Source: a virus (lineage: Duplodnaviria > Caudoviricetes). Taken from it: 30,922 nucleotides of DNA. Each line of letters starts with the position of its first letter. Positions within the stretch are counted from its first letter, which is position 1. The DNA lies in the IMG/VR virus record IMGVR_UViG_3300017988_000020, positions 1 through 30,922 of that record. One strand, given 5' to 3'. The notes under the pieces were generated by a model that was given only the letters and a program-made list of their open reading frames with translations, had not been told where the DNA came from and made no database searches. The translations under genes and the position numbers were made by a program. This document shows, in pieces, positions 2,424 through 25,918 of this stretch.

Positions 2424-2912
2424 ATGCTAAATCTAAGGCGGGAAAAATTTTGTAGGGAGTATATCAAAGACTTAAATGCGACTCAGGCGGGGATTCGTGC
2501 CGGATTTTCTGCGAAAACTGCGTATGCCATCGCCGGGAAATTATTGAAAAATGATGAAATCCAAGCGCGCATTTCGGAATTATCGAAATCCTCGATGGAA
2601 AAATGCGAGATCACGACGGAGTATATCTTGCGCGGGATTAAAAAAATAGCTGAAATGTGCGCGGAGCCGCTTGATTATAAAGAAAATCCCATTAGCGGAA
2701 AGCCATCCCATCGCGCCGCAGCGGATGCGCAGGCTGCCCTCCGCGCATTGGAGCTGCTCGGAAAATATAAATCTCTTTTCGCGCAAGAGAAAAAAACTAT
2801 TTCCATCGATGGTAGCCCCGAGGGGGGACTGCATATCCAAATAATTGAGGATACTTATTCGCCGAGGGAAAAATCAAAAATCCCCGACGACACTAGAGAG
2901 CAGGCCGCATGA
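2424..2912 (+). CDS. terS: Terminase small subunit
   Basis: FCREYIKDLNATQAGIRAGFSAKTA...KLLK is the Terminase_2 signature. ALELLGK motif. Upstream of terL. Confidence 0.95.
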   Translation: MLNLRREKFCREYIKDLNATQAGIRAGFSAKTAYAIAGKLLKNDEIQARISELSKSSMEKCEITTEYILRGIKKIAEMCAEPLDYKENPISGKPSHRAAADAQAALRALELLGKYKSLFAQEKKTISIDGSPEGGLHIQIIEDTYSPREKSKIPDDTREQAA

Positions 2913-4219
2913 GCGCTATCATCCGCGTCAGTTTGACCGCCGCTCAGCGCGATATCCTCGCCGCAAAAAAACGCTTTACGCTCATCCGCGCCGGGCGAAG
3001 ATTTGGCAAGACGTGGCTGGCACTGTATTGGCTAATCAAAATGGGATTGACTCATCCGGGAGCGGTGTGTTGGTTTGTGGGGCCGGATTTAAAACAGCCC
3101 CGCGAAGTCGCGCTGCCTGCGCTCAAAGCTCTGCTGCCGACTGGGATATGGATCGAGCATAAGCAGGATATGTATCTCGCGTTTCCGAATGGGGCAAAAA
3201 TATTTTTCAAAACGTGCGATAGCATGGATGCACTGCGGGGACGTGCGATTGATTTTCTGGTGTGCGAGGAATTCGCATTTTGGAAGCACTCGGAGGAGCT
3301 GTGGTACAAAATCCTGCGCCCGCAACTCATCGATCGGCGCGGCTCCGCAATGATTATTAGCTCTCCTAATGGTTGCAACACTTTTAAGCGATTAGAGGAG
3401 GATGGACGCACTGATGCAGAGTGGTCGATTCATCACTACAATATCCGCGATAATCCCTACCTGCCCGCCGCCGAAATCGCCGCGCTGCAAGCGTCTTGCT
3501 CTGATGATGATTGGGCGCAAGAGTACATGGCGGAGTATCTTGAGTGGTCGGGATTGATCTATTATGAGTTTAATCCGCAAAAACACGTCAGCGGTCAGCC
3601 CCATGGCGACATCAAGTACACCGTGCGCGGCATGGACTGGGGCATTGCAGATGAGACTGGCTGCGCGATCATCCACGTCCTCGGAAATGATGCGCTGTAC
3701 GTCGCCGACGAGTACACCGCTAATAATACGCCCATCCCGGATATCTGCGCCGACATAAAAAAAATGCCATACAGCCCGCGAGCAACCATCATGGACAGCA
3801 GCGCCTGGCGGCGCGAGAGCGACATGCAGAGCGTTGCCGCCCGCTTCCACCAGTCAGGGATTGATTTAATTCCCGGAACTCGCGACCTCCAAACCTCAAT
3901 CTCCGACGTTAAGATGCTCATAAAACTGGGTAAGCTCATTGTCGCGCCCCGATGCAAAAACATCATCCGTCATTTGCAGGGATGGAATTTCGGCGAGCAT
4001 GAGCCGGATATTCTCGCGGCTATGCGGTATGGGTTGGCTTTTTTAATCGCCAAGGGCGCGGTGTCCATGCCGCGCGTTCCTAAGCCCGCGCCGGAAATCA
4101 AGACGAACCCAAACGGCTGGATGAGCATGAAGGAGATGGACGCATTTGAGTCAAAAATAAAGGAGCGGCAAAAGCCGAGCTTCACTTTTTCCGTCGTAAA
4201 TCCAAATAGAGGATGGTAA
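2909..4219 (+). CDS. terL: Terminase large subunit
   Basis: Walker A AGRRFGKT, LRG...FLVCEE Walker B, ISSPNG motif III, nuclease GMDWG. Confidence 0.95.
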   Translation: MSAIIRVSLTAAQRDILAAKKRFTLIRAGRRFGKTWLALYWLIKMGLTHPGAVCWFVGPDLKQPREVALPALKALLPTGIWIEHKQDMYLAFPNGAKIFFKTCDSMDALRGRAIDFLVCEEFAFWKHSEELWYKILRPQLIDRRGSAMIISSPNGCNTFKRLEEDGRTDAEWSIHHYNIRDNPYLPAAEIAALQASCSDDDWAQEYMAEYLEWSGLIYYEFNPQKHVSGQPHGDIKYTVRGMDWGIADETGCAIIHVLGNDALYVADEYTANNTPIPDICADIKKMPYSPRATIMDSSAWRRESDMQSVAARFHQSGIDLIPGTRDLQTSISDVKMLIKLGKLIVAPRCKNIIRHLQGWNFGEHEPDILAAMRYGLAFLIAKGAVSMPRVPKPAPEIKTNPNGWMSMKEMDAFESKIKERQKPSFTFSVVNPNRGW

Positions 4220-4220
4220 C

Positions 4221-6140
4221 ATGGCTATAAAAAAAACTGAACGCAATAAATCAATCTGCGACGAGGTTTTGGACAAGCAGAAAACCTACGAAGGCAAGAT
4301 GATGTACCGTCTGTCCGAGTGGTCAGAGCTCGGCGCGCTGCTACTCGGAAAAGAGTCAACCGTTCGCGGCGAGAACACAAAGCCGGTGCAGAACTGCGCC
4401 GAGCTACTCAAGGCCAACCGCGCACTGACCGCCATGAGCTATCGCATGCTGACCAGCCAGCGGCCCTTTTTTGAGCTTGAGGCCAACGACGTGATGGGCC
4501 ATCAGGACCCGCGCAGTTTGGTCTACGGCGAGCAATACGTCCAGCAGCAGCTTGAGCTGTCCAATTATAACAATAAACTCTACAAAGCGCTCTACAACAC
4601 ATGGCTTTATGGTACCGGCGTTGTCCACGAGCCGTACGAGCCACTCAAGACAACCTTCCTCGGCGCGCCGCGCTCCTGCACGCAGTTCAACGTCGTGCCG
4701 CTTATCAACTGCGCGTTTTCTCTCGATGCCTACGATATCAGCGAGAGCGCATGGATGTGCCTGTCGGATATCACGTCAAAGCAATACGCCGAGGCGATAA
4801 AGCGCACTGACCCCAAAGGCAAGATTTATGACCTGTCCGAGGTGCAAAAGGCGCTGGACGAAACCTACAATCCCGGCGGCGATGCTAACATGTGGGTTAA
4901 GCAGCGTCTTGCATGGTCTGGCTATTTTGACACCACTTTCCGCAACGGCTTAGAGGTTACGACCTATTACGGGCCGCTGGATGCAAAGTATGACGGCGAA
5001 AACTATATCGTCTGTATACTCAACCGGACGCATTTAATTCGTTGTGAGCGGTTTATAGGCTTGCCGCCTGTGCGCGTTGCCACAATCAACAATCTGGACG
5101 TGGAGCCGCTCGGCAATGGCATCGGCACGTTGTTCCGCCCGCTGCTAAAAGAGATGGACGACACGCGGGCGGCGTTGTTAGATACGGTGCGCTTTGCCGG
5201 GGCGAATATGTTCGCTAAGTCCAAGAGCGTAGGTCAAGAGGATAGCGCGTGGACGATGCGGCCTTTCGGCATCGTGGAAATGGATGGGCAGCTAACGCCG
5301 TTGCAGCCCGCGCCCGCAACATTGGGCGTATTGGGCGGCGAGTATAACGCGCTTGTACAAGAGTTCCGGCAAGCGTCTGGTGCGACCGATACGCTACAGG
5401 CAATGGTGCAGGGTGATTCCGCGACGGCGACCGAGGTATCACTGGCGATGAACGAGGCCGTCCGCAATATCTCCGTTACGTCTGAACTGCTTGCTGGCCC
5501 ATTCGTCCGCGACCACATCAAGGTTATCCTGCAAAACTGCTTCCGGTACCAGGACAAGCCGGTAACGCTCAACATTGGCAAAACGCCCGTAACTGTGGAG
5601 CCGACGCTGATCAAAGTGGACTATAATGTCCGCGTCAAGACCATGACCGACCAGGATTTCCGGCCCTCCAAAATCAATCATCTGCTGCAAGCTCTGCAAA
5701 TCATGAATAGCGTACCGCCCAATGCTATCAACGGCTACAAGGTCTCCGTGGCGCCGACGTTTATAGAGCTGCTCAAGACCATGCAAGTGCCGGACTGGGA
5801 AAAGAGCGTGCAGCCGATAACCGAGGCCGATATGCTCCGCATGAACGTGATGGCGCAGATGGCGAACCCGCAGCCGCAGCAAGCCGCAGGGCCGCAGGAT
5901 GGCGCAAGCCAGATACCCGCCGGAGAGCAGCGCATAGCCGCCGGAAAGCCCGGACGCAGGGAACAGCGCGGCATTAACCGCGGCAACAACATGCAGGATA
6001 TCGGCGCGGCACAGACTTCCATCGTCCCCGGAGGCCAGCAGGTGCTACAGGCTCCCGGAGATACCGCAATGACCTCGCAGGCGATACGCTCAAGCGTACC
6101 GAGCCTGCCGCAGCAGCAAATCCCCCCGAGGAGCAAATAA
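4221..6140 (+). CDS. Portal protein (P22-like)
   Basis: Follows terL, 639 aa, YGTG and TATEV motifs, Q/P-rich C-terminal tail. Confidence 0.85.
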   Translation: MAIKKTERNKSICDEVLDKQKTYEGKMMYRLSEWSELGALLLGKESTVRGENTKPVQNCAELLKANRALTAMSYRMLTSQRPFFELEANDVMGHQDPRSLVYGEQYVQQQLELSNYNNKLYKALYNTWLYGTGVVHEPYEPLKTTFLGAPRSCTQFNVVPLINCAFSLDAYDISESAWMCLSDITSKQYAEAIKRTDPKGKIYDLSEVQKALDETYNPGGDANMWVKQRLAWSGYFDTTFRNGLEVTTYYGPLDAKYDGENYIVCILNRTHLIRCERFIGLPPVRVATINNLDVEPLGNGIGTLFRPLLKEMDDTRAALLDTVRFAGANMFAKSKSVGQEDSAWTMRPFGIVEMDGQLTPLQPAPATLGVLGGEYNALVQEFRQASGATDTLQAMVQGDSATATEVSLAMNEAVRNISVTSELLAGPFVRDHIKVILQNCFRYQDKPVTLNIGKTPVTVEPTLIKVDYNVRVKTMTDQDFRPSKINHLLQALQIMNSVPPNAINGYKVSVAPTFIELLKTMQVPDWEKSVQPITEADMLRMNVMAQMANPQPQQAAGPQDGASQIPAGEQRIAAGKPGRREQRGINRGNNMQDIGAAQTSIVPGGQQVLQAPGDTAMTSQAIRSSVPSLPQQQIPPRSK

Positions 6141-6433: not shown

Positions 6434-7096
6434 ATGACCGATACTGAGATTAAGACCGCCGCCGCCGCGACCGCCCAGAAGGCCGCAGAAGTGAAAGCGG
6501 GGCAGCCTGGACAAGCCGGAACGCCTGCGAATGACAATAAGAGCGCCGAGAGCGCCGAACTGAACGCGACCTCTAAAGCGAATTTCGCGTTTATAAAACT
6601 CCGTCAGGAGCGGTCCGCTCTCAAAAAAGAGAATGCCGAGCTTAAAGCCAGAGGCACCACCGGACAGGCAGCGAGCGCCGCCGATGGGAAGGACGTGGAA
6701 GCCGAAATATCTCGCCGTGTCGCGCAGGAAGTGGAAAAGGAAACGCATAAACTGTCCATAGCGGGCAAAGAGGAGAAAGCCCTGTCAGACCTTGCCAGTG
6801 ATGCAGAGATATCCGCGCTGCCTTCGGGCGTGATGGATGTCATTGACCTGGTGGATTCCGATAGCCGCCTTTCCAGATTGTATGCCGTGGACCCAGAAGT
6901 TGCCATTTCCGAAGCCCGGAAACTCTATAAGGCCAGAAAGGGAATCACCTCAACCACCGTGCCAGTAGATCGCACTCCGACCGCTAAACTTACTGTAGCA
7001 GACGCGAAAGATAAGCAGGCCATACTCGCAAAGATGTCAAAGCTTCAACCCACGTCCAAAGCGTGGAAAGAGCTATACAAACAGCTCAAATCTTAA
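6434..7096 (+). CDS. Capsid scaffolding protein
   Basis: Charged coiled-coil protein directly before the major capsid gene. GAGGT RBS. Confidence 0.75.
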   Translation: MTDTEIKTAAAATAQKAAEVKAGQPGQAGTPANDNKSAESAELNATSKANFAFIKLRQERSALKKENAELKARGTTGQAASAADGKDVEAEISRRVAQEVEKETHKLSIAGKEEKALSDLASDAEISALPSGVMDVIDLVDSDSRLSRLYAVDPEVAISEARKLYKARKGITSTTVPVDRTPTAKLTVADAKDKQAILAKMSKLQPTSKAWKELYKQLKS

Positions 7097-7114: not shown

Positions 7115-8008
7115 ATGTCGGATACAATATTTAACGAACTGCCAGCGCAGGCTAGCGACCCTGCGTATGGCGTAGCAAGTCAGGTATTCGCCGCTGATTA
7201 CATCAAGGCACTGTATGACCATGTAGGCGCGTGGCAGCATACCCGCAACGAAACTGCCGAGGTTACCGCCTACGGGCAGAAAGTAACGCTGGCTTCCATG
7301 CCGCGTCTGACTGTCGTAAGCATTGACCCTACGACCTCCGCACTGACCGGCAACACGCAGCAGATAACCGCCGCGGTGGTTACTGTCGACCAGTACAAAG
7401 GCGTTCCGTTCAAGCTGGACTGGGCGACGCAGGTACAGTCCCGCGTGGACCTTCCTGCCGCGTTTTCTGTCAACGCCGCCGATGCGATATCGTCCAACAT
7501 GGACCTGCGTCTCGCGGTTCTCGCGCAGTCGCTGACCACGAACAGCGTCGGCTCTCTCGGCTCCAATCTCACGGAGGCCGTGCTGGACACCGCCATCGGC
7601 AAGCTGGTGCAGAATCACGTCCCGCTGGAAAACCCGGAAGACCTTGTATGGGTGCTTCCCGGCAGCCAGTGGTCCACCGTCAAGCAGCTGACCGCCTCTT
7701 ATGCGACCAATTACCGCATAATCAAGGGCATGGACGGCGATGGCAACGAAAAGGACATCCAGCTGCGCGTGGAAACCCTCCACAGCATCCCGATATTCTG
7801 GAAAACCGATACTTCGATGGCGGTTTCCGGCGGGCAGGTGGGTGGACTGTTCTACCGCGATTGCGTCGGCACCGCAATCCAGCGCAACCCCGCGCTCAAA
7901 GGGCCGTTCCCGATGACCGGCTACGCAGCGGACCAGATAGTCGCATGGTCCCTGTACGGCATGAACATCATCAAGGACCCCGTAGGCTGCCAGATTCTTA
8001 CCGTGTAG
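7115..8008 (+). CDS. Major capsid protein (HK97 fold, P22-coat-like)
   Basis: Position, size, G.KVT and VTVDQYK elements, C-terminal SLYG strand, strong codon bias, followed by a hairpin. Confidence 0.85.
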   Translation: MSDTIFNELPAQASDPAYGVASQVFAADYIKALYDHVGAWQHTRNETAEVTAYGQKVTLASMPRLTVVSIDPTTSALTGNTQQITAAVVTVDQYKGVPFKLDWATQVQSRVDLPAAFSVNAADAISSNMDLRLAVLAQSLTTNSVGSLGSNLTEAVLDTAIGKLVQNHVPLENPEDLVWVLPGSQWSTVKQLTASYATNYRIIKGMDGDGNEKDIQLRVETLHSIPIFWKTDTSMAVSGGQVGGLFYRDCVGTAIQRNPALKGPFPMTGYAADQIVAWSLYGMNIIKDPVGCQILTV

Positions 8009-8077: not shown

Positions 8078-8725
8078 ATGTCAATGACAGTCCAGGGCGT
8101 GATAAACGAAGTCCGGGCGATGGTGCTAGAAACCAACCCGGCTAATTCCCATTTCACAGACGCAAACGTATTGACATATGTCAACGAGTGTACGCTTCAA
8201 CTGATGGCTTATCTCGGCTCATTTCCCAAGGTCAATTATACGCTGACCAGCGCCACCACCATGACGATGGGAGAAAACCTGCTCTGCCTGGACTATGCCG
8301 CTATTCAGAACCCCGACGCATCCTACAAAAAACTAAAGTCAACCGATTTTGACAGTTTCGTATTGCAAAACCCTGATTGGCTGAACGCGCCGCAGGGTAT
8401 CCCGACCTTCATAATCCGCATGGACGTGCTAAACTGGATGCTTTGGCCGGTTCCGCTGGCGATCTATACCGGTGTGCCGGTCGAGATTTACGGCAAGACG
8501 CTGCCGGCGCAATTGACTGTCGCCACGCAGGAATTGCCGCTATCCATTCTGTTCAACAACTGCTATCTGTTCTATGTGGCATGGAAGGTTTATCTAAACC
8601 ACCTGAACCAGCCGGACAAGGCAAAGGATGCCTTTGAAACCTTTGACAACTTCCGAAAAATCAACACGCAAGCCGCCACCGCGACCCAAGGGACGCTAAA
8701 GTCCTTCAATCTGACCAAGATGTAG
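8078..8725 (+). CDS. Head-tail adaptor (tail tubular A-like)
   Basis: MTVQGVINEVR...FTDANVLTYVNE and LWPVP pattern. Position after the capsid gene. Confidence 0.8.
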   Translation: MSMTVQGVINEVRAMVLETNPANSHFTDANVLTYVNECTLQLMAYLGSFPKVNYTLTSATTMTMGENLLCLDYAAIQNPDASYKKLKSTDFDSFVLQNPDWLNAPQGIPTFIIRMDVLNWMLWPVPLAIYTGVPVEIYGKTLPAQLTVATQELPLSILFNNCYLFYVAWKVYLNHLNQPDKAKDAFETFDNFRKINTQAATATQGTLKSFNLTKM

Positions 8726-8735
8726 GGAGAAGCCC

Positions 8736-11510
8736 ATGCTCCGCATAATCGCCGCTCTGTTGCTGATTGCCGCGCCTGTAATGGCGCAGGATAAGCCGTT
8801 TGATCACGCCTTCCGCAACATGACCGGCGGCGTGAACCCTACCAGCGCGCCCATGTATCTGCCGGATGCGCAAAGCCCTTGGATGATGAACATGGACGAG
8901 GACCAGACCTTTGGCGCACTGACATCCCGGCGCGGCTCCGTGGTGTGCGGCAACTATCCGACCGGCAATCAGGTGGTCAATATGTGGCAGTTTTCGCGAA
9001 ACGCTGGCACGCAATATCTTGTCGCCACGGACGGATATAGCGTTTACGCCACGCAGGATTGTAATAGCTGGACGAAAGTTAAAGACGGTCTACCCTACGA
9101 TTATTACGAATTCGCCACAGTCAACAACAAGCTATGGGTAACGTCGCAAAGCATCGCACCGTTTACATGGGACGGCAGCAATACCGTGCTGCTGGACGGC
9201 TCCGGAACTTCCACCACCGCGCCGCTGGCAAAGCATATCCTTTATTGGCAGTCCCGCGTATGGATGGCAAATACGAGCAGCAACGGCAGCGAACTGGATT
9301 TTACGGTGCTGGCCGACACAACGGGCGCGCAGATAGACCCGACGCTTGCAGGGTCATTCTCGGCCCTCTATCAGCTTTGGATAAATCCCTCCGATGGCGG
9401 ACAGATAAACGCAATCATTCCCTATCGCGGCTATTTACTGGTGTTTAAGGATTCCGGTATCTGGCAAGTGCAGTTTCAGGACGAGTACAATCTCTCGGTC
9501 AGCAAAGCGCTTTCTTCCGTAGGTTGCGTGGCTGGCGACACGGTGCGAGAATATAACGGCAGCATCTATTTCCTCGGCAAAGACGGAGAGATGTATACCA
9601 TAAACATGTGGATGCAGGTGCAGCATACCGCGCACCAGCTTAATGCCATTCTCAAGAACGTAACGCAACCGCAATTCGGGCTGACGCAGCAACTTTATAA
9701 TACCGATGTGATGTGGCAGACCGGGACGATTAAGCCATCCGGCGCGTTTGTGCAGGGAGATAACCTTCTGGAACTATCCAGCGCCGCAGCATCTTATACG
9801 CTTCCCGTCTGGCCCGCTGAACCCTCTACAACGATTTCCACGCCTGCTTATTCCGTCAATATGTCAACGGCGGTCAGCTGTATGTACTGTGATATGAGGT
9901 TTTATAATGCACCCGTTAATACTACTTTCGGGGACGACATAACTATGAGTGGCGCAGAATATGTTCCAGAATTACAATTTTTTGGAGATGATGAAGCGTC
10001 TGCGAATGCCTATATGGTAAGTACATCAACCGGTAATCTTTATGGAAGCAGCACAATTCTTTTCACTCCCGGATATCCAAAGGAAGCATACTCTGACCAA
10101 AATTCAGCTCTAGTATCTCAATATTTCGTGATAGCATCCAATTCCAATAATCTGAATATAGGTAGCTTTACTGGCATAGGCGTTGGGTGTCAAACTTCAT
10201 TTGGCATTAATTCTGCCATAGACTACACCCAAGCAACAATGAGTGATTCCTTTTCGACAACTTGTTATCTTGACAAATTCACGAACAGCGGTGTTACTAC
10301 CGGTGCGAGTTTGTTTACTAATACCGGCACCGGAACTGCAAATATTTCCAATATAGGTGGTAATCCTGGTGATTGGAATTTAAACTCATGGACTATGACA
10401 GGCAATTTTCCGATATATATAACCTCAAGAGTTAATATTGATGGTGGCGTTGCGCTGGCTTTCTCTACTGCCACTACCGGGGTGGTTTATTTCTCCACCA
10501 CAACTTACACGCTGCAACCCGGCGCACTCAGTACCACTTCTGTTTATACAGGTCTTTCTACGACCGTTACCGATACAGTTATGGAAAACTTTATTATGTC
10601 AATGCCTTTCGGCGACTTCACAACACCGATTAATTCTGGCCAGCTTAAAGGCTCTTGGACATCGCCCGATATTTACGCCTCCAATTTGACAAACTGGGTT
10701 TCATCAAGCATTTCCAGTTCCTCTTTATATCAGGTTGCCATATCGAGCATAAGCTTCTATTACCGCGCCGCGCCTACGGCTACGGCACTTTCTACTCAAA
10801 CATGGCTTCCACTAACCGTCGGTAATCTTTCTATTCCGGCAATCGATTATTACGCGCAATTGCATGTGGATATGGCTGATTGGGCTGTAACTGCAAGCAG
10901 CAGAAATTATGTGTCCAGCCTCGGGCTGTCATGGAAATATGGTTCCGCATCCGTAGGTGGCATCCCCCATGCCATGATTTACAACAACCGCTATTATGTC
11001 GCTGTCGCGTCCAGCAATGCCACGACCGATAATCTGATGCTGAAACTGTCCGTTGAACCGGCGGAGCATTGGAGTTTATATAGCCTCGGCTGCCCGGCGC
11101 TGCTCAATTATCTAAATTCGCCAAAATGCGCGATAAATGGCACGTCGAAAATAGACACGTTTGATACCGGCTACAGCGATGAGGGCAAACAAATATCATT
11201 TGAATGGCAGTCCGGCGACCAGTTGGAGAACGCGGCCTACTATCCGAAATATCTGCAATATATCCTGCTGGACTATCTGGCTACTGCTTCAACAGCGTTC
11301 AATTACGGGTTCAGCATTGACCAAGGTACGACCTTCACCGATTACACAGAAACCAGCGACGGCTCCGGCATCCGGGAAATTCACCGCGATAACGTGATTG
11401 CCAATCAGGCGCCACAATATCGCCTGCACGTTACCGGCGCGACCAACACGCCGATAACCATTTATGGAATTGATGGCATGGGCTTTGTGCGTCCGACCTT
11501 GGCTCAATAA
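8736..11510 (+). CDS. Tail nozzle / packaged-DNA stabilisation protein (P22 gp10 or T7 gp12-like) with N-terminal signal peptide
   Basis: GGVN...GALTSRRG N-terminus and beta-propeller motifs LLVFK, VGCVA, IYFLGKDG. Begins MLRIIAALLLIAAPVMA-QD. Confidence 0.8.
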   Translation: MLRIIAALLLIAAPVMAQDKPFDHAFRNMTGGVNPTSAPMYLPDAQSPWMMNMDEDQTFGALTSRRGSVVCGNYPTGNQVVNMWQFSRNAGTQYLVATDGYSVYATQDCNSWTKVKDGLPYDYYEFATVNNKLWVTSQSIAPFTWDGSNTVLLDGSGTSTTAPLAKHILYWQSRVWMANTSSNGSELDFTVLADTTGAQIDPTLAGSFSALYQLWINPSDGGQINAIIPYRGYLLVFKDSGIWQVQFQDEYNLSVSKALSSVGCVAGDTVREYNGSIYFLGKDGEMYTINMWMQVQHTAHQLNAILKNVTQPQFGLTQQLYNTDVMWQTGTIKPSGAFVQGDNLLELSSAAASYTLPVWPAEPSTTISTPAYSVNMSTAVSCMYCDMRFYNAPVNTTFGDDITMSGAEYVPELQFFGDDEASANAYMVSTSTGNLYGSSTILFTPGYPKEAYSDQNSALVSQYFVIASNSNNLNIGSFTGIGVGCQTSFGINSAIDYTQATMSDSFSTTCYLDKFTNSGVTTGASLFTNTGTGTANISNIGGNPGDWNLNSWTMTGNFPIYITSRVNIDGGVALAFSTATTGVVYFSTTTYTLQPGALSTTSVYTGLSTTVTDTVMENFIMSMPFGDFTTPINSGQLKGSWTSPDIYASNLTNWVSSSISSSSLYQVAISSISFYYRAAPTATALSTQTWLPLTVGNLSIPAIDYYAQLHVDMADWAVTASSRNYVSSLGLSWKYGSASVGGIPHAMIYNNRYYVAVASSNATTDNLMLKLSVEPAEHWSLYSLGCPALLNYLNSPKCAINGTSKIDTFDTGYSDEGKQISFEWQSGDQLENAAYYPKYLQYILLDYLATASTAFNYGFSIDQGTTFTDYTETSDGSGIREIHRDNVIANQAPQYRLHVTGATNTPITIYGIDGMGFVRPTLAQ

Positions 11511-11511
11511 C

Positions 11512-14394
11512 ATGAAAACAATAATCCTGATTGCGCTATTTGCAAGTATTGCCTCGGCACAGTCCACCACGCCGAACACTGTTGAAACGTCCGCAACCCC
11601 GGCATCCATAGCCTCGGAACTGGACACGACCATAAACCATACGGTAACGCATCCGGCGATTCGCCAGAATGTGCAAAGCGGTCATGTAGACAGCGCGGGT
11701 AACCCGAATTATGTAAGCTGGACGGCTGGTAAACTTTATGTTGATGGCTCCGTAACGCCGCTTACTGTTACCGTTGCCGATGGCGTGAATGCCTATGGCA
11801 CGGTGGACTATAACTTCCAGCTTAAAAGCAAAATGGCTATGACGCGGCCTGGCGCAAATGCCTACATCTTCATTACCTACAATCCCAACACCAGCGCTAT
11901 CAGCGTGGGCGCATCAGCCTCGCCGGTGCAGACGGTGAACGTACTGCCCACTTCCGGCGTAGCAAATGTATGGTATTGGATTGTTGCATTGCAAAAAAAC
12001 TATATGTACGTTTCCGGGCGTATGCAGGATACTCCGTCGCTTTATCTCGGCATGTTCTACAGTACCGGCTCATTTGTGTATGCCAATTTCCAAAAGACCT
12101 CAGTCGCGTCCGGCTCCGGCACTGGCACACTGCCTATGGATTTGGCCTATGTTGACCAGTCAAATACATTCACCAGCCCCAACACTTTTACGCAGACCAT
12201 CAGCGGTAGCATTACCGGCAATGCCGCGACTGCCAACTACGCCAGCACGGCGGGATTCGTCTCACTGGCTCCTGGTACTGGTGGAATACAAAGCACGTTA
12301 GCGGGAGAGGGCACTAATGCCATAGATTTGCAAACTATCCAGTCAAGCAATACGCAAATAGCGAGCGGCAATTATTCCTCGCTATTGGGTGGATGGGGGA
12401 ATACCGCGTCTGGTTCATATTCTACGGTACTCGGCGGCTATGGTAATACCGCATCTGGCAACTATTCCATTGCGGGCGGACAAAGCACAACGTGCGGCGC
12501 GAATAACGCGTTCTGTTGGACCGACGGGCTGACCCCTACGGGCGGCGGTGCGATTGGCGGCATTTCTTACGGCGCGTGGTTCAAATCACAATATTTCCGG
12601 GTCACGCAAAGCACCAATCCTGCAGATGGTGGCTTCTTTGTTGACAATCACGGTTATGTCGGCATCGGCGAGACGATGGGGCAAGCTCCGGCGTATCCCC
12701 TTGACGTCTGGGGCATCGTGCGTTCCGCGAATGGCGGGTTTATGTTCCCTGACGGGACCGTGCAGATAACCGCAATATCTACAGTCGACGGCATCGCCCA
12801 TCTCGCAGGAGACAACCAGACCTTTGTGCAAGACATAAATACTTTCTCCGGACAGACCAACCTCAACGGCGGCGTGAATATTTCCACGCCTGCTTTCAAC
12901 CAAAACGCGGGCGGACTTAATATCAAGGGAATCATCGATCTTGTGGACGGCACGACTATCCAAACCAACGGTTACGATATTGTTTTCAATGGCTCCGGTC
13001 CGAAGGGTGTTCACAATACTAGTGCGTACGGTGAAACCATAGATGGAGCATTAACGGTGGGCGGCGGTGTCGCCATTACCGGTGGATGGCCCATAACTGC
13101 CGGGAGTATGACTGTAACATCATCTGCAACTGCGTCTGCTTTCTTTGGCGACGGGTCACACCTGACTGGGATATCTACCACTGACGCGGGCGCGGGGCAT
13201 CTTGTAAGCACTCAAACATGGTCCGGCGTAAATACTTTTCAGGGACCCATCGTTATAAATGGTGGTGGCGGTTCCAACCTGTACCCATACATGGCGTGGA
13301 TATCCACCAGCAGCATTCCGTACGCGCAATATCGCGGCGTGTGGATGGCATTCGACCCATCCTATAACGGTTGGTGGGTCACAATGCCAGAAACCAACAA
13401 TCCATACACGAATTGTCCGGACTGCTATATGATTGGGAGCAATATTTCAAAAGGCAAAGTAGTGCTGTCTGGCGGGTATAACACGTGGCCGAACGCTTCT
13501 TTTGATGTGGTAGTATCGTCTGCCCATTATGTGGGCATAAGCACCGGTATGCCGCAGTATCCGCTAGATGTGAATGGTGCGGCTATGTTCCGCAGTTCCG
13601 CAACCGCTTCCGCATTTTACGGCGACGGTTCACATTTGACTGGACTACCGTCCGGCGGCGGGATAACTGCGCTTACCGGCGACGTTACCGCATCAGGTTC
13701 CGGCAGCGTGTCGGCGACGCTGGCAAGTATTAGCACCCCGGGAACATATGGCAGCGCAACGGTAGTCCCAACAATCACCATGGACGCAAAGGGCAGAATT
13801 ACAAGCGTTTCCAGCAACACTATTGTGGCAGCACAGACTAACCAAGCCAATGTATTCACGCTAACGCAAAACATAACTAATTCAATCCCTGGGCAATTAC
13901 ATATTACAAACCCTTCGGCTTCGGGAAGTGAGTCTTCAATATATCATTACACTGTTAACGGTTCAACATGGGTCGCCGGTGCTGGTGGCTGGGGTAATGG
14001 AGATACATATACAATCGGAAATATATCCAATGGTGCGCTATTAAAGGTTTCCAACAATGGCAATCTGAATGTGGCAGGAGCATTGACAGTTGGAGCACTG
14101 TCCCCACAAGCTATAGCAACATCATACACATCACCCTCATATGTGCAATTAGGTTCGCTGATTATTCAATGGGGAACAGTGTCTCTCACTGACGGTTCAA
14201 CATCCACCATTACTTTCGCGAAAACCTTTACATCCGGAACAACATACGTGGCGACTGTTTCGGAACTTGGCAGTAATGGTGATGACCCCTATGTTAACGG
14301 TTTCCGAGTAAATTCACAATCTGCCGCAAGTATGGCTGTTCAGAGTAAAACAAACGGCACTAATAACTGCAACTGGATAGCTATTGGATATTAA
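11512..14394 (+). CDS. Tail fibre / receptor-binding protein with N-terminal signal peptide
   Basis: Start 11512 follows the upstream stop (MKTIILIALFASIASA-QS). GG.GNTASG.YS adhesin repeats, YVGI...YPLDV.G modules, C-terminal LIIQWG...WIAIGY domain typical of tail fibres. Confidence 0.85.
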   Translation: MKTIILIALFASIASAQSTTPNTVETSATPASIASELDTTINHTVTHPAIRQNVQSGHVDSAGNPNYVSWTAGKLYVDGSVTPLTVTVADGVNAYGTVDYNFQLKSKMAMTRPGANAYIFITYNPNTSAISVGASASPVQTVNVLPTSGVANVWYWIVALQKNYMYVSGRMQDTPSLYLGMFYSTGSFVYANFQKTSVASGSGTGTLPMDLAYVDQSNTFTSPNTFTQTISGSITGNAATANYASTAGFVSLAPGTGGIQSTLAGEGTNAIDLQTIQSSNTQIASGNYSSLLGGWGNTASGSYSTVLGGYGNTASGNYSIAGGQSTTCGANNAFCWTDGLTPTGGGAIGGISYGAWFKSQYFRVTQSTNPADGGFFVDNHGYVGIGETMGQAPAYPLDVWGIVRSANGGFMFPDGTVQITAISTVDGIAHLAGDNQTFVQDINTFSGQTNLNGGVNISTPAFNQNAGGLNIKGIIDLVDGTTIQTNGYDIVFNGSGPKGVHNTSAYGETIDGALTVGGGVAITGGWPITAGSMTVTSSATASAFFGDGSHLTGISTTDAGAGHLVSTQTWSGVNTFQGPIVINGGGGSNLYPYMAWISTSSIPYAQYRGVWMAFDPSYNGWWVTMPETNNPYTNCPDCYMIGSNISKGKVVLSGGYNTWPNASFDVVVSSAHYVGISTGMPQYPLDVNGAAMFRSSATASAFYGDGSHLTGLPSGGGITALTGDVTASGSGSVSATLASISTPGTYGSATVVPTITMDAKGRITSVSSNTIVAAQTNQANVFTLTQNITNSIPGQLHITNPSASGSESSIYHYTVNGSTWVAGAGGWGNGDTYTIGNISNGALLKVSNNGNLNVAGALTVGALSPQAIATSYTSPSYVQLGSLIIQWGTVSLTDGSTSTITFAKTFTSGTTYVATVSELGSNGDDPYVNGFRVNSQSAASMAVQSKTNGTNNCNWIAIGY

Positions 14395-14397
14395 ATC

Positions 14398-14649
14398 ATG
14401 GGAACTGAAGACCGGCTTGTACGGATTGAAGAGAAAATAGACCTGCTGCTATCGCGGCAGGCCACGCACGACGCGCGTATCGAAGCCATAGAAAAAAATA
14501 ATGAAAAGCTCGACAAGATAGTCATGGGCACCGGTGAGACTCCCGGACTGATGGAGCAGACGCGCCAGACTGCCCGCGACGAACGTCTAATCGCTATCGG
14601 CATATCAACTATCATCAGCGGGATTCTCGGCTGGTGGCAGCATCACTAA
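14398..14649 (+). CDS. Holin-like coiled-coil protein with C-terminal TM helix
   Basis: EDRLVRIEEKID coiled coil and LIAIGISTIISGILGWW helix. Upstream of an endolysin remnant. Confidence 0.6.
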   Translation: MGTEDRLVRIEEKIDLLLSRQATHDARIEAIEKNNEKLDKIVMGTGETPGLMEQTRQTARDERLIAIGISTIISGILGWWQHH

Positions 14650-14658
14650 AGGAAACAT

Positions 14659-14808
14659 ATGGAAAATCAACAACTGACGGAGCATTTCAGTTTTTATGAG
14701 TTGACGGATTCGGCGGCGCATCCGGATCTGGTGGACAGTAACCGCACGGACGCGCAGGCATATCTGCGCTCGCTCGCCGACGTCTGCAAAATACTGCTTG
14801 AGCCCTAG
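14659..14808 (+). pseudogene. Truncated peptidase M15-type endolysin
   Basis: MENQQLTEHFSFYELTDS...VCKILLEP*R matches the M15 N-terminus (LT.HF...EL..S...LEP.R). The catalytic SGYR/SxH region is absent. Confidence 0.75.
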
Positions 14809-14877: not shown

Positions 14878-15597
14878 ATGGCTTTCTCGGATGAACTTTC
14901 AGACGTTTTAGGCTACAACCGCCGCACGGCGCAGCTTTCCGGCGTTACCCCGTATCAGCAGATAATTGGCGCGGCTATAGGTATTGGCGGCACAGTCGGC
15001 GGTCTTATAGGCGCATTTGGCAGCAAACCGCCCAATTACAATATTTCTATGCCCTCGAATGAATACAGCAACCTGTTGAGCAGCCAGCAGGCAGGGTTTA
15101 ATTCAGCTACGGCGGCCTACAATACCTCCATGACCAATCTTGGTACACAGATGGCGGGGCAAGCCGTTTCGGGCCTGTCCGCACGCGGTATAGCCAACCA
15201 AGGAACTATTGCGGCAACCAAGGCCAGCGTCGGCTCCTCCATTTCCAGCGCAAGGGCCGCAGCCGCGCAGGCATTGCAGGAAGCACAGCTTAAAGCGGGC
15301 AATCAACTGGAATCCTCACTTGCCGGATACAACATGCAACTTTCAAACAACGCCTATAAAGCAGCCATGCAGAAATATGCAGCGCAGCAAGGGCTTTGGG
15401 GCGCATTGGGCGGCGTGGGCGCGGGGCTTTCGATGCTGGATAAACAGCAGTTGCCAGTACGCGGTTCATTGCAGCCTGGACAACTTGGTGATGAGGATGT
15501 AACTAACCCCGAAACGTATGGACGCGGCACTGGGCCAATAGGGCCAGAAATGGCATCAGACCAGACTACAAGCCTGCTTAAAACAGGAGGTCAATAA
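14878..15597 (+). CDS. Internal virion / DNA ejection protein
   Basis: Gly/Ala/Gln-rich with glycine-zipper segments and an LSARGI motif. Confidence 0.7.
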   Translation: MAFSDELSDVLGYNRRTAQLSGVTPYQQIIGAAIGIGGTVGGLIGAFGSKPPNYNISMPSNEYSNLLSSQQAGFNSATAAYNTSMTNLGTQMAGQAVSGLSARGIANQGTIAATKASVGSSISSARAAAAQALQEAQLKAGNQLESSLAGYNMQLSNNAYKAAMQKYAAQQGLWGALGGVGAGLSMLDKQQLPVRGSLQPGQLGDEDVTNPETYGRGTGPIGPEMASDQTTSLLKTGGQ

Positions 15598-16100
15598 TGT
15601 CTTTACTTGGTAATATCGGCCTTGGCGTGTCTGTAGGCGGCCTGCTTGGCAGCGTTTTAGGTTCCGGCAATCAGCCCTCCTACGATTATAGCGGCTATCA
15701 GAAGGCCCTCGACCTGATAAATCAGCAGCAGGCCAATGTCAACACCTATTATCAGCAGGCGGGGCAATCGCTGGAATCGCAATATGGGCAGATGTATGGC
15801 ACGACTATGCAGAATGCGGTAAACGCCAGCGCAGCGAAAGGAATTTATAACAGCCCCGTCTCTCAAGTCGGCCTCAATCGCACGACCTCGCAGCTTGCGA
15901 ATGTCTACGCAAACGCACAGGCCAATTTGCAAGGTCAAAAACTAGAAGCGCAGAATGGCATAGATAGCCAGATGGCGAGCTATTATACCAATCTGGCGAA
16001 TACGCAGTATCAAACGCAGATGGGGCAGTATCAGAACCAGCAATCAACTTTCGGCGCAATCGGCGGCTTGGCTGGCGGCGCGCTTGCCGCAATACTCTAA
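15597..16100 (+). CDS. Internal virion / DNA ejection protein
   Basis: TAATG coupling, glycine-zipper ends, Q/N-rich core. Confidence 0.7.
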   Translation: MSLLGNIGLGVSVGGLLGSVLGSGNQPSYDYSGYQKALDLINQQQANVNTYYQQAGQSLESQYGQMYGTTMQNAVNASAAKGIYNSPVSQVGLNRTTSQLANVYANAQANLQGQKLEAQNGIDSQMASYYTNLANTQYQTQMGQYQNQQSTFGAIGGLAGGALAAIL

Positions 16101-16112
16101 GGAGCTTAAAAC

Positions 16113-17669
16113 ATGGCAATGTCCCAACAGGCAGGAGCAGCGAATATCCCGGCGGCAATGGGCGGCGACGCGTCAATTAACCCGCAGGCGCTTGATGCAG
16201 CCAGTCAGTCCGCATTACAGGCCGCGCAGCCAGCGCAGGGCTACGCTTCCAATTCTGACCCCGCTATGCAGGCGGTGCAGTCTGTCCGCAGCAATCCGCT
16301 AAACCAGTTGACCGGTGTACTCGCTGGCGGCGGCATGGGCGCGGCAACAACCAATCCCGGCGGGAGCAGCGCGGGTAATTTCTTGCAGGGCTTCACGGCT
16401 GGACTACAGGCTCCAGCAAAAGTCTATGCATTGAAACAGGCCGAACTTCAAAGCACGATAGACGCGACCCCGCTTTCCGCGACATATCCGAGCATTGCGG
16501 ACAGGTATCCGGCGTTTTCAGGAATGCCAACTAAAATAGCGCTTGACCATATCCAGCAGATTTCAAAAGATGCGGTGGACCTATACACCAAGAATCAGGA
16601 AATTAACGCCGCTGCGCAGGCGCAAGAAGTCAACCAAGTTAATGCAGGGTCATACCGCAACAGCGTGGCGCTGGCGTTGGGTTCTGATGCATCAGGTATA
16701 AATCTTAGCAAGCCAAATAACTTACTGGATAGCGCAGTGGACACCAACGGCAATCCATTTCCTGATGATGTGGGCGCACACGTCGGCACAAACGGCATTG
16801 TGGTGGACAAGGATAATCAGCCTATACAGGGTGCACATATTGTGCAGGGCGGAAAGCTCATAGGAATGAAAGATAACGATGTTTCCGACTTTGTGCGCTG
16901 GAACATCATGCAGAAGCAACAGGGCAATGACCAGCAACAAATGACGCTCAACCAGCAGGAAAACGCCTGGAATATGTTGTTCCGAGAAACGAACCAGTAC
17001 GTTGCGATGAGGGGTTCGGCGTTAGGATTGGTAGGGCAACTGAATATGCGTTCCGACCGTGCGCTTGCGCTTGTCTCGCAAGGCCAAATAACGCCGCAGG
17101 AATTACAGGCGGTTAATGAGGATATTGCCGCCATAATGAAGGGCGGAGTACCGGCAGAGGCCGAAGTCAAAGGCATATCTTACGGCAGTCTTAAGGCCGA
17201 CCTCGAAAAGAAAATAGGCTATCTGATGAATAATCCCGCCGCAGTTACGCTTCCGGATATTCAGGCCAAACTCAAGGACGACCTCACACGCATTAAAGAC
17301 ATTGACCAAAAACTTGTGCTGGCGAATCTTAACCAAGCCGCCATAGCGCATGGCACACTTATAAATTCATCGACGGAGAATAAGCAACGCTGGCACGAGT
17401 ATGCCAACAACATAACTCAGGACGTTCTGGGCGGCAATTTCACCATCCCAGACGCTAAGGGAAATCCGACCTTTGACACACAGAGGTTTACTGCCGCGTA
17501 TGGCAGCCAAGGAATAGGCGGACCGGCGAATGTTTGGGGCGGTCCGGCAGGAAGCAACCAGATGCTTACGCCGCTCAGCAATGGCCCCGCTGAAGGTACG
17601 CAAGCCACGAAGGTAATCAATGGCAAACCTACGCTTTTAACTTTCACTAAAGGACGGTGGGTATACTAA
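16113..17669 (+). CDS. Internal virion / DNA ejection protein
   Basis: AAGGAG RBS, Q/A/N-rich helical protein within the ejection cluster. Confidence 0.7.
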   Translation: MAMSQQAGAANIPAAMGGDASINPQALDAASQSALQAAQPAQGYASNSDPAMQAVQSVRSNPLNQLTGVLAGGGMGAATTNPGGSSAGNFLQGFTAGLQAPAKVYALKQAELQSTIDATPLSATYPSIADRYPAFSGMPTKIALDHIQQISKDAVDLYTKNQEINAAAQAQEVNQVNAGSYRNSVALALGSDASGINLSKPNNLLDSAVDTNGNPFPDDVGAHVGTNGIVVDKDNQPIQGAHIVQGGKLIGMKDNDVSDFVRWNIMQKQQGNDQQQMTLNQQENAWNMLFRETNQYVAMRGSALGLVGQLNMRSDRALALVSQGQITPQELQAVNEDIAAIMKGGVPAEAEVKGISYGSLKADLEKKIGYLMNNPAAVTLPDIQAKLKDDLTRIKDIDQKLVLANLNQAAIAHGTLINSSTENKQRWHEYANNITQDVLGGNFTIPDAKGNPTFDTQRFTAAYGSQGIGGPANVWGGPAGSNQMLTPLSNGPAEGTQATKVINGKPTLLTFTKGRWVY

Positions 17670-18994
17670 TGCCGATACTTACGCAGGATGAGTTTAATGC
17701 ACTTCCAGACGGACATACTGTAGCCGCCGTCCATCCGTCCAATGTTTTCACGCCGGAGGAGTTTAATGCGTTGCCAGATGCACAGCCTGCCAATATTTGG
17801 CAAACGGTAAAACACGGTGCGCAGGAAGCCGTAGGCGCAGTACAGGATATGCTAAATCCGGCGCAGGCTGTGCGAGGATTGGCAAGTCCACGCGGCGAGG
17901 ACATAATAAATGAGCTTCCGGCTGTCGGCGCAGGCGTTGGAAGCCTTGCGGGGCCAGGCGGTACGGCAATTGGTGCAGCGTCCGCGCAAGTGCTGAAAGA
18001 AGGCGCACAGGCATTTACGGGGAGCAATGCCGTCCCGCAATCCGCATTATCAGCCGGAGCGCAACCCATAGAGCAGGGCGCAATCCAGCTAGGAGCCGAG
18101 GCTGCTATGCCGTATGCTCTTAAGGCGCTAGATTGGACTACAAAAGCCGTTGGTGGCGTGTCTGATTGGTTCGCAACGAAGGCGGGGCAGTATTTCCTCA
18201 ATGCCTATAAGCGGGATTATTCGTATGGACACAATCCAGCGCAGGCGTTGGTGGATGAAAAAATTGTTGCGCCCACATGGGATAGCCTGATTGAAAAAGT
18301 CGGAGATGCAAGGGCGGCGCTTGGCAAGGAATACGACAAAATTTTTGCCGCGCGTCCCGATGCAACTGTTGATCTCTCTGAAATATCACAGCCTATAGAA
18401 AAAGCCATAGACGAAGCGGGGAAAATGCCGGAGCGCAATGCCACGCTCATAAATAATCTTAACGGGCTTTGGTCGGATGTGGAACAGTATGCAGGCGTTA
18501 AATCATTGCCAGAAGCGCAGGATATTAAATCCATGCTATATTCTGCGTCAAAATTCACTGGCAATCCTTCGGATGATGCCATTCTGAATCGTACACAGCA
18601 AGCAGTCGCGGGGAAAATAGCCGCAGGAATGAAAGAAGTCGCGCCGGAACTTGGGCCGCTGAATATCCGCTATGGGAATCTTTCATCTCTGGCGACCGCC
18701 GCAGCGCGTCGGGCCGATATAGTCAACGCTAACCCAATCCCGTATTATGCAGCAGGCGGCGGCGCATTGATTGGCGGTCTTGCTGGTGGCAGTGTCGGAG
18801 CAGCGACAGGCGCAACTATAAGCGCAGGAATGAAAGTCCCTGCTGTTGCCACTCCCGCAATAGCTGCTTTGGGACTTCCTTCCGAGGCGGCAGAGGCATT
18901 GCAAACGCTGATTAAGTATCTTGCGCCAGCAGAATTCCGCGCCGTCTCACAGGCTGCTACCGCCACCGCAGCAACGCATTTTCAGCAAAAATAG
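17669..18994 (+). CDS. Internal virion / DNA ejection protein
   Basis: TAATG coupling at 17669, EFNALPD twice at the N-terminus, glycine zippers flanking a helical core. Confidence 0.7.
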   Translation: MPILTQDEFNALPDGHTVAAVHPSNVFTPEEFNALPDAQPANIWQTVKHGAQEAVGAVQDMLNPAQAVRGLASPRGEDIINELPAVGAGVGSLAGPGGTAIGAASAQVLKEGAQAFTGSNAVPQSALSAGAQPIEQGAIQLGAEAAMPYALKALDWTTKAVGGVSDWFATKAGQYFLNAYKRDYSYGHNPAQALVDEKIVAPTWDSLIEKVGDARAALGKEYDKIFAARPDATVDLSEISQPIEKAIDEAGKMPERNATLINNLNGLWSDVEQYAGVKSLPEAQDIKSMLYSASKFTGNPSDDAILNRTQQAVAGKIAAGMKEVAPELGPLNIRYGNLSSLATAAARRADIVNANPIPYYAAGGGALIGGLAGGSVGAATGATISAGMKVPAVATPAIAALGLPSEAAEALQTLIKYLAPAEFRAVSQAATATAATHFQQK

Positions 18995-19206: not shown

Positions 19207-19377
19207 ATGGGGAACATGGATGAGCGCGTAACTGCTTTGGAGGGCGATATGAACGACGTTAAAATAAATAACGCGCTCACCGCTGACCGTGTACGTTTGT
19301 TGCTTTGGGTTCACGGACTTGAAGCGACAATTGCACTAGGCATCCTTGCCAAAATCGCATTTAATAAGGGGTCATAA
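19207..19377 (+). CDS. Holin-like coiled-coil protein with TM helix (56 aa, not in the ORF track)
   Basis: MGNMDERVTALEGDMNDVK...LLLWVHGLEATIALGILAKIAF. TAATG overlap with the amidase gene. Confidence 0.65.
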   Translation: MGNMDERVTALEGDMNDVKINNALTADRVRLLLWVHGLEATIALGILAKIAFNKGS

Positions 19378-19826
19378 TGGACGAAAATAATCATCTCAAG
19401 GCATTGTGTGATGCCGCAGTATCTGCGCCGGAATTCCAACCTAAAGACGGAGTAACCCACTGTAATCAGGCAGTCCGAAGTATAGCCCTTGGCATGGGCT
19501 ATACCGGTTTTGCGCCGGATGAACTTGCCACGCACATGATAGGCTTTATGGCTGCGTCTCCCGATTGGGAAGCCGTGAATATGGAACATGCCGCGCAGTT
19601 CGCGCAGGCGGGGCGCATGGTGGTTGCTTGCATGGTAGAGCAGTCGCATGGCCATGTCGCCGTGCTTTATCCCGCACCCATGCAGCAAAGCGGCTCTCTC
19701 GGCTATGAAGTACCGATGATTGCCAACGTCGGCAAGACAAACGGCGTAATGCGGGCTTCTCAGGCGTTCCCCGTCGCGCAATTCCCGCGCTGGCCTATCT
19801 ATTACGCACTCAAGGCGGCACAATGA
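19377..19826 (+). CDS. Putative endolysin, Cys/His amidase (CHAP or NlpC-P60-like)
   Basis: THCNQAV and HGHVAVL candidate catalytic motifs, next to a holin-like gene. Confidence 0.7.
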   Translation: MDENNHLKALCDAAVSAPEFQPKDGVTHCNQAVRSIALGMGYTGFAPDELATHMIGFMAASPDWEAVNMEHAAQFAQAGRMVVACMVEQSHGHVAVLYPAPMQQSGSLGYEVPMIANVGKTNGVMRASQAFPVAQFPRWPIYYALKAAQ

Positions 19827-22037: not shown

Positions 22038-22523
22038 ATGGAAAAACTCATATCGCTAATCACGCAGCATCTCGCCATATTCGGCGTAAGCACCGGGCTT
22101 GTCGGCGCGGTGATACGTCATTATCTGCCGTCGTTAATCAGCACCGCGCAAGCTAAGCTCTCCGGGATTTACACGTCGGAGTTTAGCTGGATTTTCGGCT
22201 CGCTGGCTGGGAAGCTGGACTATAACGCGCTGCCGCCGGAGAAGCGCGATAAGGCGCGTGTTTACGTCCAAAACATCATCATATACGCGGTGCGGCTGCT
22301 GGACCTGATAATGCCGGACGACGGACTCGGCGCGCAGAAAAAGCAGTCGCTTATGCTATGGTTCCAGACCATAAAAATGGACCCGCAGACTGCCGGGGAA
22401 ATCAGCGACTTCATAGACTTCGCCGTCAAGTCGCTTAAAGAGCAGGCCGCAAAGTCAGCAATGGACGCACAGTCCGTAGCCGCTGCACCCGCATCCGCCC
22501 CGCCTGCATCATCTGAGAAGTAG
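22038..22523 (+). CDS. Membrane protein, LL-H-holin-like
   Basis: N-terminal hydrophobic helix and GLGAQKK...ISDFIDFAVKSL pattern. Start placed just after the upstream stop. Confidence 0.55.
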   Translation: MEKLISLITQHLAIFGVSTGLVGAVIRHYLPSLISTAQAKLSGIYTSEFSWIFGSLAGKLDYNALPPEKRDKARVYVQNIIIYAVRLLDLIMPDDGLGAQKKQSLMLWFQTIKMDPQTAGEISDFIDFAVKSLKEQAAKSAMDAQSVAAAPASAPPASSEK

Positions 22524-25742: not shown

Positions 25743-25918
25743 CCCTCCCCGCCATCCTCAAGCGCCTGATATGGCGGCTCCACGCCTCCCCGCGCTGCCG
25801 CCATTGCAAAAGGCCGCTGAAAGACGCAAAAAGCAGACGCGCCGGGATTGGTCCTGGCTGCCAGAAACAACAAACCGTGGCCCTGGCGGATTCCGGGGCA
25901 AGGAAAAAATATGATTAG
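25739..25918 (+). CDS. DUF6011-like zinc-finger protein (59 aa, not in the ORF track)
   Basis: CRHCKRPLKDAKSRRAGIGPGC motif, ATGA coupling. Confidence 0.75.
   Translation: MTLPAILKRLIWRLHASPRCRHCKRPLKDAKSRRAGIGPGCQKQQTVALADSGARKKYD

Follow-up and report, generated by a model that had tools for sequence, protein, structure and literature searches.

Predicted Sec-type leaders on the tail nozzle and a fibre-like protein of an uncultured podophage point to probable tail maturation outside the cytoplasm

The window studied here, i.e., the whole stretch of DNA that was analyzed, is a single contig of 30,922 bases (IMGVR_UViG_3300017988_000020). Both of its ends lie inside one alanine-rich tandem-repeat gene and the final 25 bases recur at position 14, an arrangement that fits an apparently complete circular phage genome opened within a repeat. 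Family scans with Pfam and PHROG revealed genes for small and large terminase, an SU10-type portal, a major capsid protein, recombination and replication functions and a holin-like protein, and none of the 26 ORFs of the window scanned by family searches matched a tape measure, tail tube or integrase. The window stems from an uncultured short-tailed phage (podophage), the features of which are compiled in Table 1.

Table 1. Features of the window, with the evidence on which each assignment is based.
Feature	Position	Strand	Basis and remarks
Small and large terminase	2424..4219	+	Family scans; no leader by heuristic
Portal	4221..6140	+	Pfam SU10_portal (PF23899), 34.6 bits, cut-off 30; no leader
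Probable scaffold	6434..7096	+	Position and weak BLAST match to same-position gene of L020; no leader
Major capsid protein	7115..8008	+	phrog_267, E 3.7e-10; no leader
Portal adaptor	8078..8725	+	BLAST to adaptors of related loci, profile match to 8jov; no leader
Shine-Dalgarno-like GGAG	8726..8729	+	6 nt before nozzle ATG, directly after adaptor stop codon
Predicted Sec/SPase I leader of nozzle, residues 1-17	8736..8786	+	Heuristic; conserved in relatives
Mature tail nozzle/hub, 907 aa	8787..11510	+	AlphaFold2 model and Foldseek; P22 gp10 / T7 gp12 / SU10 gp17 type
Cys71 (8946-8948) and Cys109 (9060-9062) of nozzle	8946..9062	+	Co-conserved pair, likely disulfide
Predicted Sec/SPase I leader of fibre-like protein, residues 1-16	11512..11559	+	Heuristic
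Mature fibre-like protein, 944 aa, Gly/Ser/Thr-rich mosaic	11560..14394	+	Position and C-terminal Pfam domain
Four probable ejection (internal virion) proteins	14878..18994	+	Position and composition; no leader
Probable endolysin	19377..19826	+	36% identical to same-region gene of L020; function inferred by eye
Holin-like protein	22038..22523	+	phrog_6918, E 3.8e-5

Neither the four ejection-like ORFs, in the PHROG and Pfam scans, nor the putative endolysin yielded a family match. BLAST connects the adaptor with genes at the same position in related loci, E-values going down to 3e-13; 19 of 21 aligned adaptors match Pfam SU10_adaptor, the window's own protein not being among them, and the adaptor profile matches a chain of the GP4 portal-tail structure (PDB 8jov, E 3e-9). 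With regard to the host, a first scan of host genomes gave no match, and a second one returned a single 13.5-kb contig in an archaeal metagenome-assembled genome that consists nearly exclusively of a phage tail/head region, is likely mis-binned and was discarded as host evidence. A metagenome search for relatives retrieved only the window's own contig.

The gene following the adaptor had been proposed in the first-pass annotation to encode a gp10/gp12-like nozzle, and structure prediction bears this out. An AlphaFold2 model of the mature protein, built from 80 sequences, has a mean pLDDT of 76.3, scores at least 90 at 503 of its 907 residues and consists of an N-terminal beta-strand region, a Ser/Thr-rich insert of low confidence in the middle and a C-terminal beta region. 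It features a beta-propeller core and a platform formed from N- and C-terminal parts, and the gene is located behind those for portal, capsid and adaptor. In a Foldseek search the top 29 rows were all podophage tail chains, followed by generic propellers, and included the nozzles of Pa223 (9nwi), VP1 (8zkk), T7 (gp12; 6r21, 7boy), SU10 (7z47), GP4 (8jov), P22 (gp10; 8eap) and Pam1 (7eeq). E-values for these 29 matches ranged from 6e-15 to 7e-6 and target-normalized TM-scores reached 0.70, while query-normalized scores stayed at 0.21-0.36, likely because the insert is poorly modelled. As judged from the predicted fold, the first ORF is thus a podophage tail nozzle. On the sequence level this kinship is hardly visible: none of 39 aligned members matched a Pfam family, PHROG gave nothing for the window protein, and neither the protein nor its profile found a match in a PDB sequence search. 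The profile does match the "minor tail protein" gp25 of Arthrobacter phage Jasmine (probability 97%), and tblastn uncovered distant relatives in 13 phage records including Jasmine gp25 and gp54 of Roseobacter phage CRP-603. When the two terminal parts of the nozzle were co-folded with two adaptors, a score of 0.46 was obtained compared to 0.01 for the best control, to be read against a calibration in which 18 of 157 solved pairs attained the mark at 0.60 or under, as did 2 of 215 mismatched ones; the runs agreed in at least 75% of contacts and partner pLDDT was at least 81. This score lends weak support to adaptor binding and may also reflect likeness to solved tails.

The second protein had been taken for a tail fibre. 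A fibre-type C-terminal domain is indeed present (Pfam Gp53-like_C, PF21882, residues 882-960, 38.8 bits vs. a cut-off of 24.9), and a weak match exists to a putative tail fibre of a cyanophage (E 4e-4); beyond that, the identity is suggested by position. Homologue searches with residues 1-220 found no orthologue and Atlas matches stayed below 0.9, a PDB sequence search gave no match and Pfam no match to S74. The SU10 gene whose number follows that of the nozzle encodes the tail needle (accessible text of PMC9509320), so that the protein, by position, could be a lateral fibre or an axial needle-fibre. Homology of its N-terminus to the small proteins encoded after the nozzle in related loci was considered and dropped, as a profile of these proteins lent it no support.

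Both proteins begin with segments resembling cleavable Sec leaders. We searched for such leaders with a custom heuristic, distinct from SignalP, that demands a basic n-region, an uncharged core of eight residues and small residues at positions -3 and -1. It was passed by four of 40 window ORFs, namely the nozzle, the fibre-like protein, an ORF at 21509 and a weak case at 19823 with a cleavage-site score of 0. For the nozzle (ORF 8736-11510) the eight-residue hydropathy is 3.56 and the predicted cut follows Ala17, for the fibre-like protein (ORF 11512-14394) the corresponding values are 3.44 and Ala16. Internal windows of the same two proteins never passed (0/834 and 0/870, respectively). Portal, scaffold, capsid, adaptor and all four ejection-like ORFs failed the heuristic. 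Leaders of signal peptidase I type on nozzle and fibre, together with leaderless portal, capsid and adaptor, were exactly what the first-pass annotation had described.

The same annotation considered both translation starts as fixed by adjacent stop codons. This is true for the nozzle, where an in-frame stop lies eight codons upstream. It does not hold for the fibre, for which three further in-frame starts (11464, 11473 and 11485), all within the nozzle gene, precede position 11512. The latter lies 1 nt past the nozzle stop, is not accompanied by a Shine-Dalgarno match and relies on coupling to that stop. Every version of the fibre start nevertheless keeps the leader because the hydrophobic core begins downstream of all four candidates. 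Further along, no alternative start occurs before codon 54, which again has no Shine-Dalgarno match. Starts downstream of the hydrophobic segments, which would have undone the original proposal, do not explain the leaders as judged from cleavage register and a survey of start sites and Shine-Dalgarno sequences.

A profile search with the nozzle returned 623 relatives at E-values up to 0.001, the best 150 of which were inspected; 146 remained once the window's own fragment and three matches confined to the C-terminus had been removed. Leaders occur in 108 of these 146 (from the best 150 of 623), 86 passing the full test and 22 having a core without a basic residue or with an atypical site, a fraction that may be inflated since the search profile included the leader columns. 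The remainder of the same set comprises 31 leaderless proteins, four ambiguous cases and three fragments. Among the matches listed, 40 of 44 members of the window's own nozzle clade carry a leader, and ten of the 31 leaderless relatives form a real signal-less clade; by eye on the protein records, many others of the 31 look like entries whose starts were called inside the leader. The leaders share no sequence with each other while the tripartite pattern is kept across more than 100 sequences. In viral contigs neither single-protein nor two-sequence searches retrieved anything, and word-indexed protein searches brought up one relative.

The distance from the predicted cut to a conserved GG motif has a median of 17 residues among 95 leader-bearing nozzles and is 14 in the window, and signal-less nozzles have 17 (n=23) and 15 (n=43) residues between start codon and GG motif. 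Predicted cleavage restores the usual nozzle N-terminus. In the model this mature N-terminus is ordered from residue 1 (pLDDT 95, strand 3-9). [quoted passage not shown] An uncut leader would therefore likely interfere at this site.

Cysteine pairs such as CMYC and CPDC had been put forward in connection with folding in the periplasm. The motifs named are not the conserved ones: CMYC of the nozzle resides within the variable, low-confidence insert, and the closest relative lacks it. The conserved pair is instead Cys71/Cys109, both residues being present in 43, neither in 162 and one alone in none of 205 sequences. A disulfide between them is likely, as inferred from this pattern. Of 118 leader-bearing sequences, 80 lack the pair, which counts as one event because it sits mostly in one clade. 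Total cysteine numbers are odd (nine in the nozzle, five in the fibre) and their parity is no guide to whether a nozzle bears a leader, even numbers occurring in 65/110, 8/18 and 21/39 of the sets compared. Glycosylation motifs of the types N-x-S/T and D-S/T-aliphatic were not enriched. A pattern noted post hoc, [IVL]-S-[ST], is enriched 1.64-fold in the inserts of leader-bearing nozzles and 2.27-fold in the two window proteins, compared with 0.78-fold in the inserts of signal-less nozzles; it was rejected as evidence since proteins without leader also show a 1.44-fold enrichment.

Comparison of related loci taken from viral contigs indicated that the predicted export boundary differs by lineage. 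In the first state, represented by the signal-less clade (L004-L019 and L094, uncultured; 16 loci counted), neither the nozzle nor the small gene behind it has a leader, and a leader-bearing protein of at least 500 aa is encoded in nine of nine loci long enough to reach the fibre region. The second state, a nozzle with a leader, is found in L020, L035-L037 and the window. Where the nozzle bears a leader, the next gene also passes the test in eight of ten loci, compared with none of nine loci with a signal-less nozzle, five loci giving no call and two not being included. The third state is seen in L038 and L039, where the adaptor also carries a leader in the form of a clean N-terminal extension before the normal adaptor start. 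The predicted boundary accordingly encloses fibres only, nozzle plus next gene, or additionally the adaptor. Across loci, the test was passed by 0/14 terminases, 0/16 portals, 0/14 capsid proteins and 2/36 adaptors. Counted over all ORFs, 55 of 233 and 39 of 134 passed in two clade sets vs. 26 of 638 in 59 distant loci. In our view, the predicted leader is a real and lineage-wide feature. As to its history, a single origin without loss for all leader-bearing nozzles was rejected (AU p 0.001) in an origin test on 26 of 42 selected rows with three long-branch rows left out. Two trees favour, without forcing, the view that the signal-less clade lost its leader secondarily (support 96/94; AU p 0.33 and 0.19), and we do not claim such a loss.

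Because both start with predicted Sec/SPase I leaders, nozzle and fibre likely undergo export and cleavage and fold outside the cytoplasm, and this reading gains support because the nozzle fold held, homologues keep their leaders and internal starts fail to explain them. Export of the two proteins with folding outside the cytoplasm is, as a prediction from sequence, well supported. Both would pass through Sec, lose their leaders to signal peptidase I and reach their fold in the periplasm, a host with periplasm and Dsb system being an assumption of the model; there the nozzle hexamer and the fibre would assemble. Meanwhile the closed portal would hold the DNA in the head, in line with a proposal made for T7, and after the holin has breached the inner membrane the exported tail would dock spontaneously on an adaptor-bearing or bare head. 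Taken as a whole, i.e., including the joining to DNA-filled heads at lysis, we regard this model as slightly better than an even bet. For T7 it has been proposed that the closed portal holds the DNA until the tail arrives, and the adaptor there stabilizes the open portal (accessible text of PMC6702177). A cytoplasmic adaptor without nozzle would consequently pose a problem of DNA leakage for the model, and the adaptor is probably either kept waiting until the nozzle comes or blocked. Of these two options, the lineage with a leader on the adaptor fits the former.

The common view, to our knowledge, is that tailed phages complete their virions in the cytoplasm prior to lysis. If the nozzle, a core part of the tail that seals in the DNA, crosses the inner membrane, infectious particles would arise only at or after membrane breach and heads would have to hold their DNA without a nozzle, while virion proteins would gain access to disulfide formation and to envelope modification systems. 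The outer tail of this phage and of many relatives likely folds outside the cytoplasm and would join the head late, unlike that of well-studied tailed phages. A benefit, albeit a speculative one, might be that STAND sensors of the cytoplasm such as Avs13 do not encounter the folded nozzle: the bacterial sensors Avs12 and Avs13 recognize portal adaptor and tail nozzle (accessible text of PMC13581612), and leader addition could therefore be a general escape from them. In the broadest form of the proposal, a large group of tailed phages builds its virion in two compartments, with heads filled in the cytoplasm and tail parts delivered via Sec to mature outside it, and the boundary moves between lineages from fibres to nozzle and partner and on to the adaptor, maybe hiding tail folds from Avs12/Avs13; we consider this reasonably probable.

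Four other explanations deserve attention. Joining of the exported proteins to heads could be guided at the inner membrane ahead of lysis: the tail would assemble on the outer face, retained there by a leader that is cut slowly or not at all, and heads would dock through a phage-made opening. This would avoid the inefficiency of mixing at lysis, and the fact that no lipoprotein-type spanin was found among the plus-strand genes of the window hints that envelope breakdown may be unusual. Tethering of tail assembly by the leaders had also been named as an alternative in the first-pass annotation. It is disfavoured by the short leader cores, the absence of any 19-residue transmembrane segment beyond the leader in both nozzle and fibre and a residue at -1 that is Ala in 73 of 95 leaders and Ser or Gly in the others, the latter being partly a consequence of how the test was constructed. 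In addition, no candidate channel gene besides the holin-like ORFs was seen in the window. We judge guided joining unlikely. Less probable still is that each gene serves two ends, a cytoplasmic copy from an internal start or incomplete export building the virion and the exported copy acting as receptor decoy or superinfection blocker. The window nozzle does have a Met at position 16, adjoining the cleavage site, and several database relatives were called from starts inside or after the leader; however, Met16 lacks a Shine-Dalgarno match, only eight of 95 leaders contain a Met within four residues of the predicted cut, the fibre offers no alternative start between codons 2 and 53, and the co-conserved Cys71/Cys109 fits an oxidizing compartment.

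It is highly improbable that the N-terminal segments are hydrophobic assembly peptides or chance features. The heuristic does have false positives, as the passes recorded for distant loci show, some of which resemble real leaders, and yet a chance origin does not agree with a tripartite pattern kept without sequence identity, the register match, the co-variation with the next gene and the complete lack of passes among 1704 internal windows. An equally slim chance is given to nozzle and fibre having left the virion as secreted host-surface adhesins akin to the Bdellovibrio MAT fibres, for although phage-fibre-like bacterial adhesins with signal peptides exist (accessible text of PMC10769870), the nozzle gene has its place in the core operon after the adaptor with its fold kept, no second nozzle-like gene was seen in the apparently complete window genome, and L020 and L035-L039 have the same arrangement.

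Compared with the podophage nozzles of P22 (gp10), T7 (gp12), SU10, Pa223, VP1, GP4 and Pam1, the window protein has the same fold, an SU10-family portal and adaptor at its side and a shared gene order of portal, capsid, adaptor, nozzle and ejection-like genes. It differs by the Sec-type leader, a long Ser/Thr-rich insert and an identity of only 7-15%. Podophages such as P22, T7 and SU10 assemble their virions in the cytoplasm. Whereas leaderless synthesis is a defining trait of the nozzle type, the window nozzle bears a predicted leader. In the cultured representatives Jasmine gp25 and CRP-603 gp54, about 11-12 residues separate the protein start from the GG motif, with no extension. Jasmine gp25 passed the loosest leader setting on its own first strand, which is a false positive by register.

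Among phages, cleavable leaders are familiar from the inovirus coat proteins pVIII and pIII, which mature at the membrane and stay anchored in it, and the inovirus virion is extruded and has neither portal, capsid nor tail. The window proteins have the leader in common with pVIII and pIII and lack their transmembrane anchor. Mosaic adhesive trimer (MAT) fibres of Bdellovibrio are phage-fibre-like proteins with a signal peptide, and this likeness indicates that such folds can mature after export; their leader is followed by a conserved domain of about 130 aa and most members have S74 (accessible text of PMC10769870). On the other hand, MATs are chromosomal adhesins, 13 of 21 with S74, that have no nozzle counterpart (same source), while the window fibre is part of a virion operon and has no S74. 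A preprint on phi24B describes a processed virion esterase and mentions no signal peptide in its accessible part (10.64898/2026.04.10.717836). The literature on signal peptides of tail and virion proteins, covered with few subscription papers, contained no report of an exported nozzle; the parts described here belong to known podophage families, and the implied maturation route appears in no paper that we found. The signal-less sister clade constitutes a natural control. It resembles the window in nozzle, adaptor, portal and capsid as well as in the leaders of the fibre region, and differs in that nozzle and next gene have no leader, that Cys71/Cys109 is missing and that two small head-region genes carry leaders of their own, which the window lacks.

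Leaders, i.e., predicted signal peptidase I-type signal peptides, are not confined to nozzle and fibre-like proteins. Two viral loci (L038 and L039) encode SU10-family adaptors with an added predicted leader, so that, judged from sequence, export in these viruses would extend to all of the tail beneath the portal. Furthermore, leader-bearing nozzles from four loci (L093, L046, L050 and L045) are placed outside the main clade, and this placement, which depends on long branches, suggests further independent gains of the leader.

Coordinates of leader-bearing, glycosyltransferase-like, lysis-type and repeat-containing features
Feature	Position	Remark
Small leader-bearing proteins	L004:3291-3638; L004:5447-5836	
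Adaptors with added leader	L038:9267-9998; L039:5513-6235	SU10 family
83-aa holin-like ORF	window 14398-14649	precedes 49-aa ORF
49-aa ORF	window 14659-14808	looks truncated
Two glycosyltransferase-like genes	window 19823-21399	one matches Pfam GT2
Third leader-bearing ORF	window 21509-22036	directly upstream of holin-like gene
414-aa protein	window 25911-27155	numerous short tandem repeats with Cys residues (21 Cys)
Ala-rich repeat gene	window 30522-30922 + 1-336	divided between both contig ends

Small leader-bearing proteins also occur in the head region of related loci. In L004, one is encoded between portal and scaffold and the other immediately downstream of the capsid gene, and equivalent positions hold such proteins in further loci with signal-less (L005, L007, L009, L014, L016-L018) or leader-bearing nozzles (L035-L037). 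Capsid decoration proteins are often encoded at such positions. Those of the small proteins that were scanned matched no PHROG, and the window has no counterpart of these small proteins.

The third leader-bearing ORF of the window gave no match in family scans; its product resembles a small outer-membrane beta-barrel in its C-terminal Phe and alternating pattern. The 49-aa ORF, likewise without family match, has a start that, as judged by eye, resembles a peptidase M15-type endolysin. An o-spanin was not found in the window because none of its plus-strand genes carries a lipoprotein-type leader.

Across window 9700-14394, which covers the nozzle insert and the fibre, the triplet [IVL]-S-[ST] is enriched 2.3-fold over local shuffles. 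It is a possible glycosylation site pattern, but enrichment is seen in the control set as well. By eye, glycosyltransferase-like genes also lie upstream of the fibre genes in L005, L007, L009 and L017.

Family scans placed a DUF7666/rIIB-like domain at the C-terminus of the 414-aa protein. The Ala-rich repeat gene shares a paralogous C-terminus with ORF 757-1254, and a weak Imm5-like match was recorded here.
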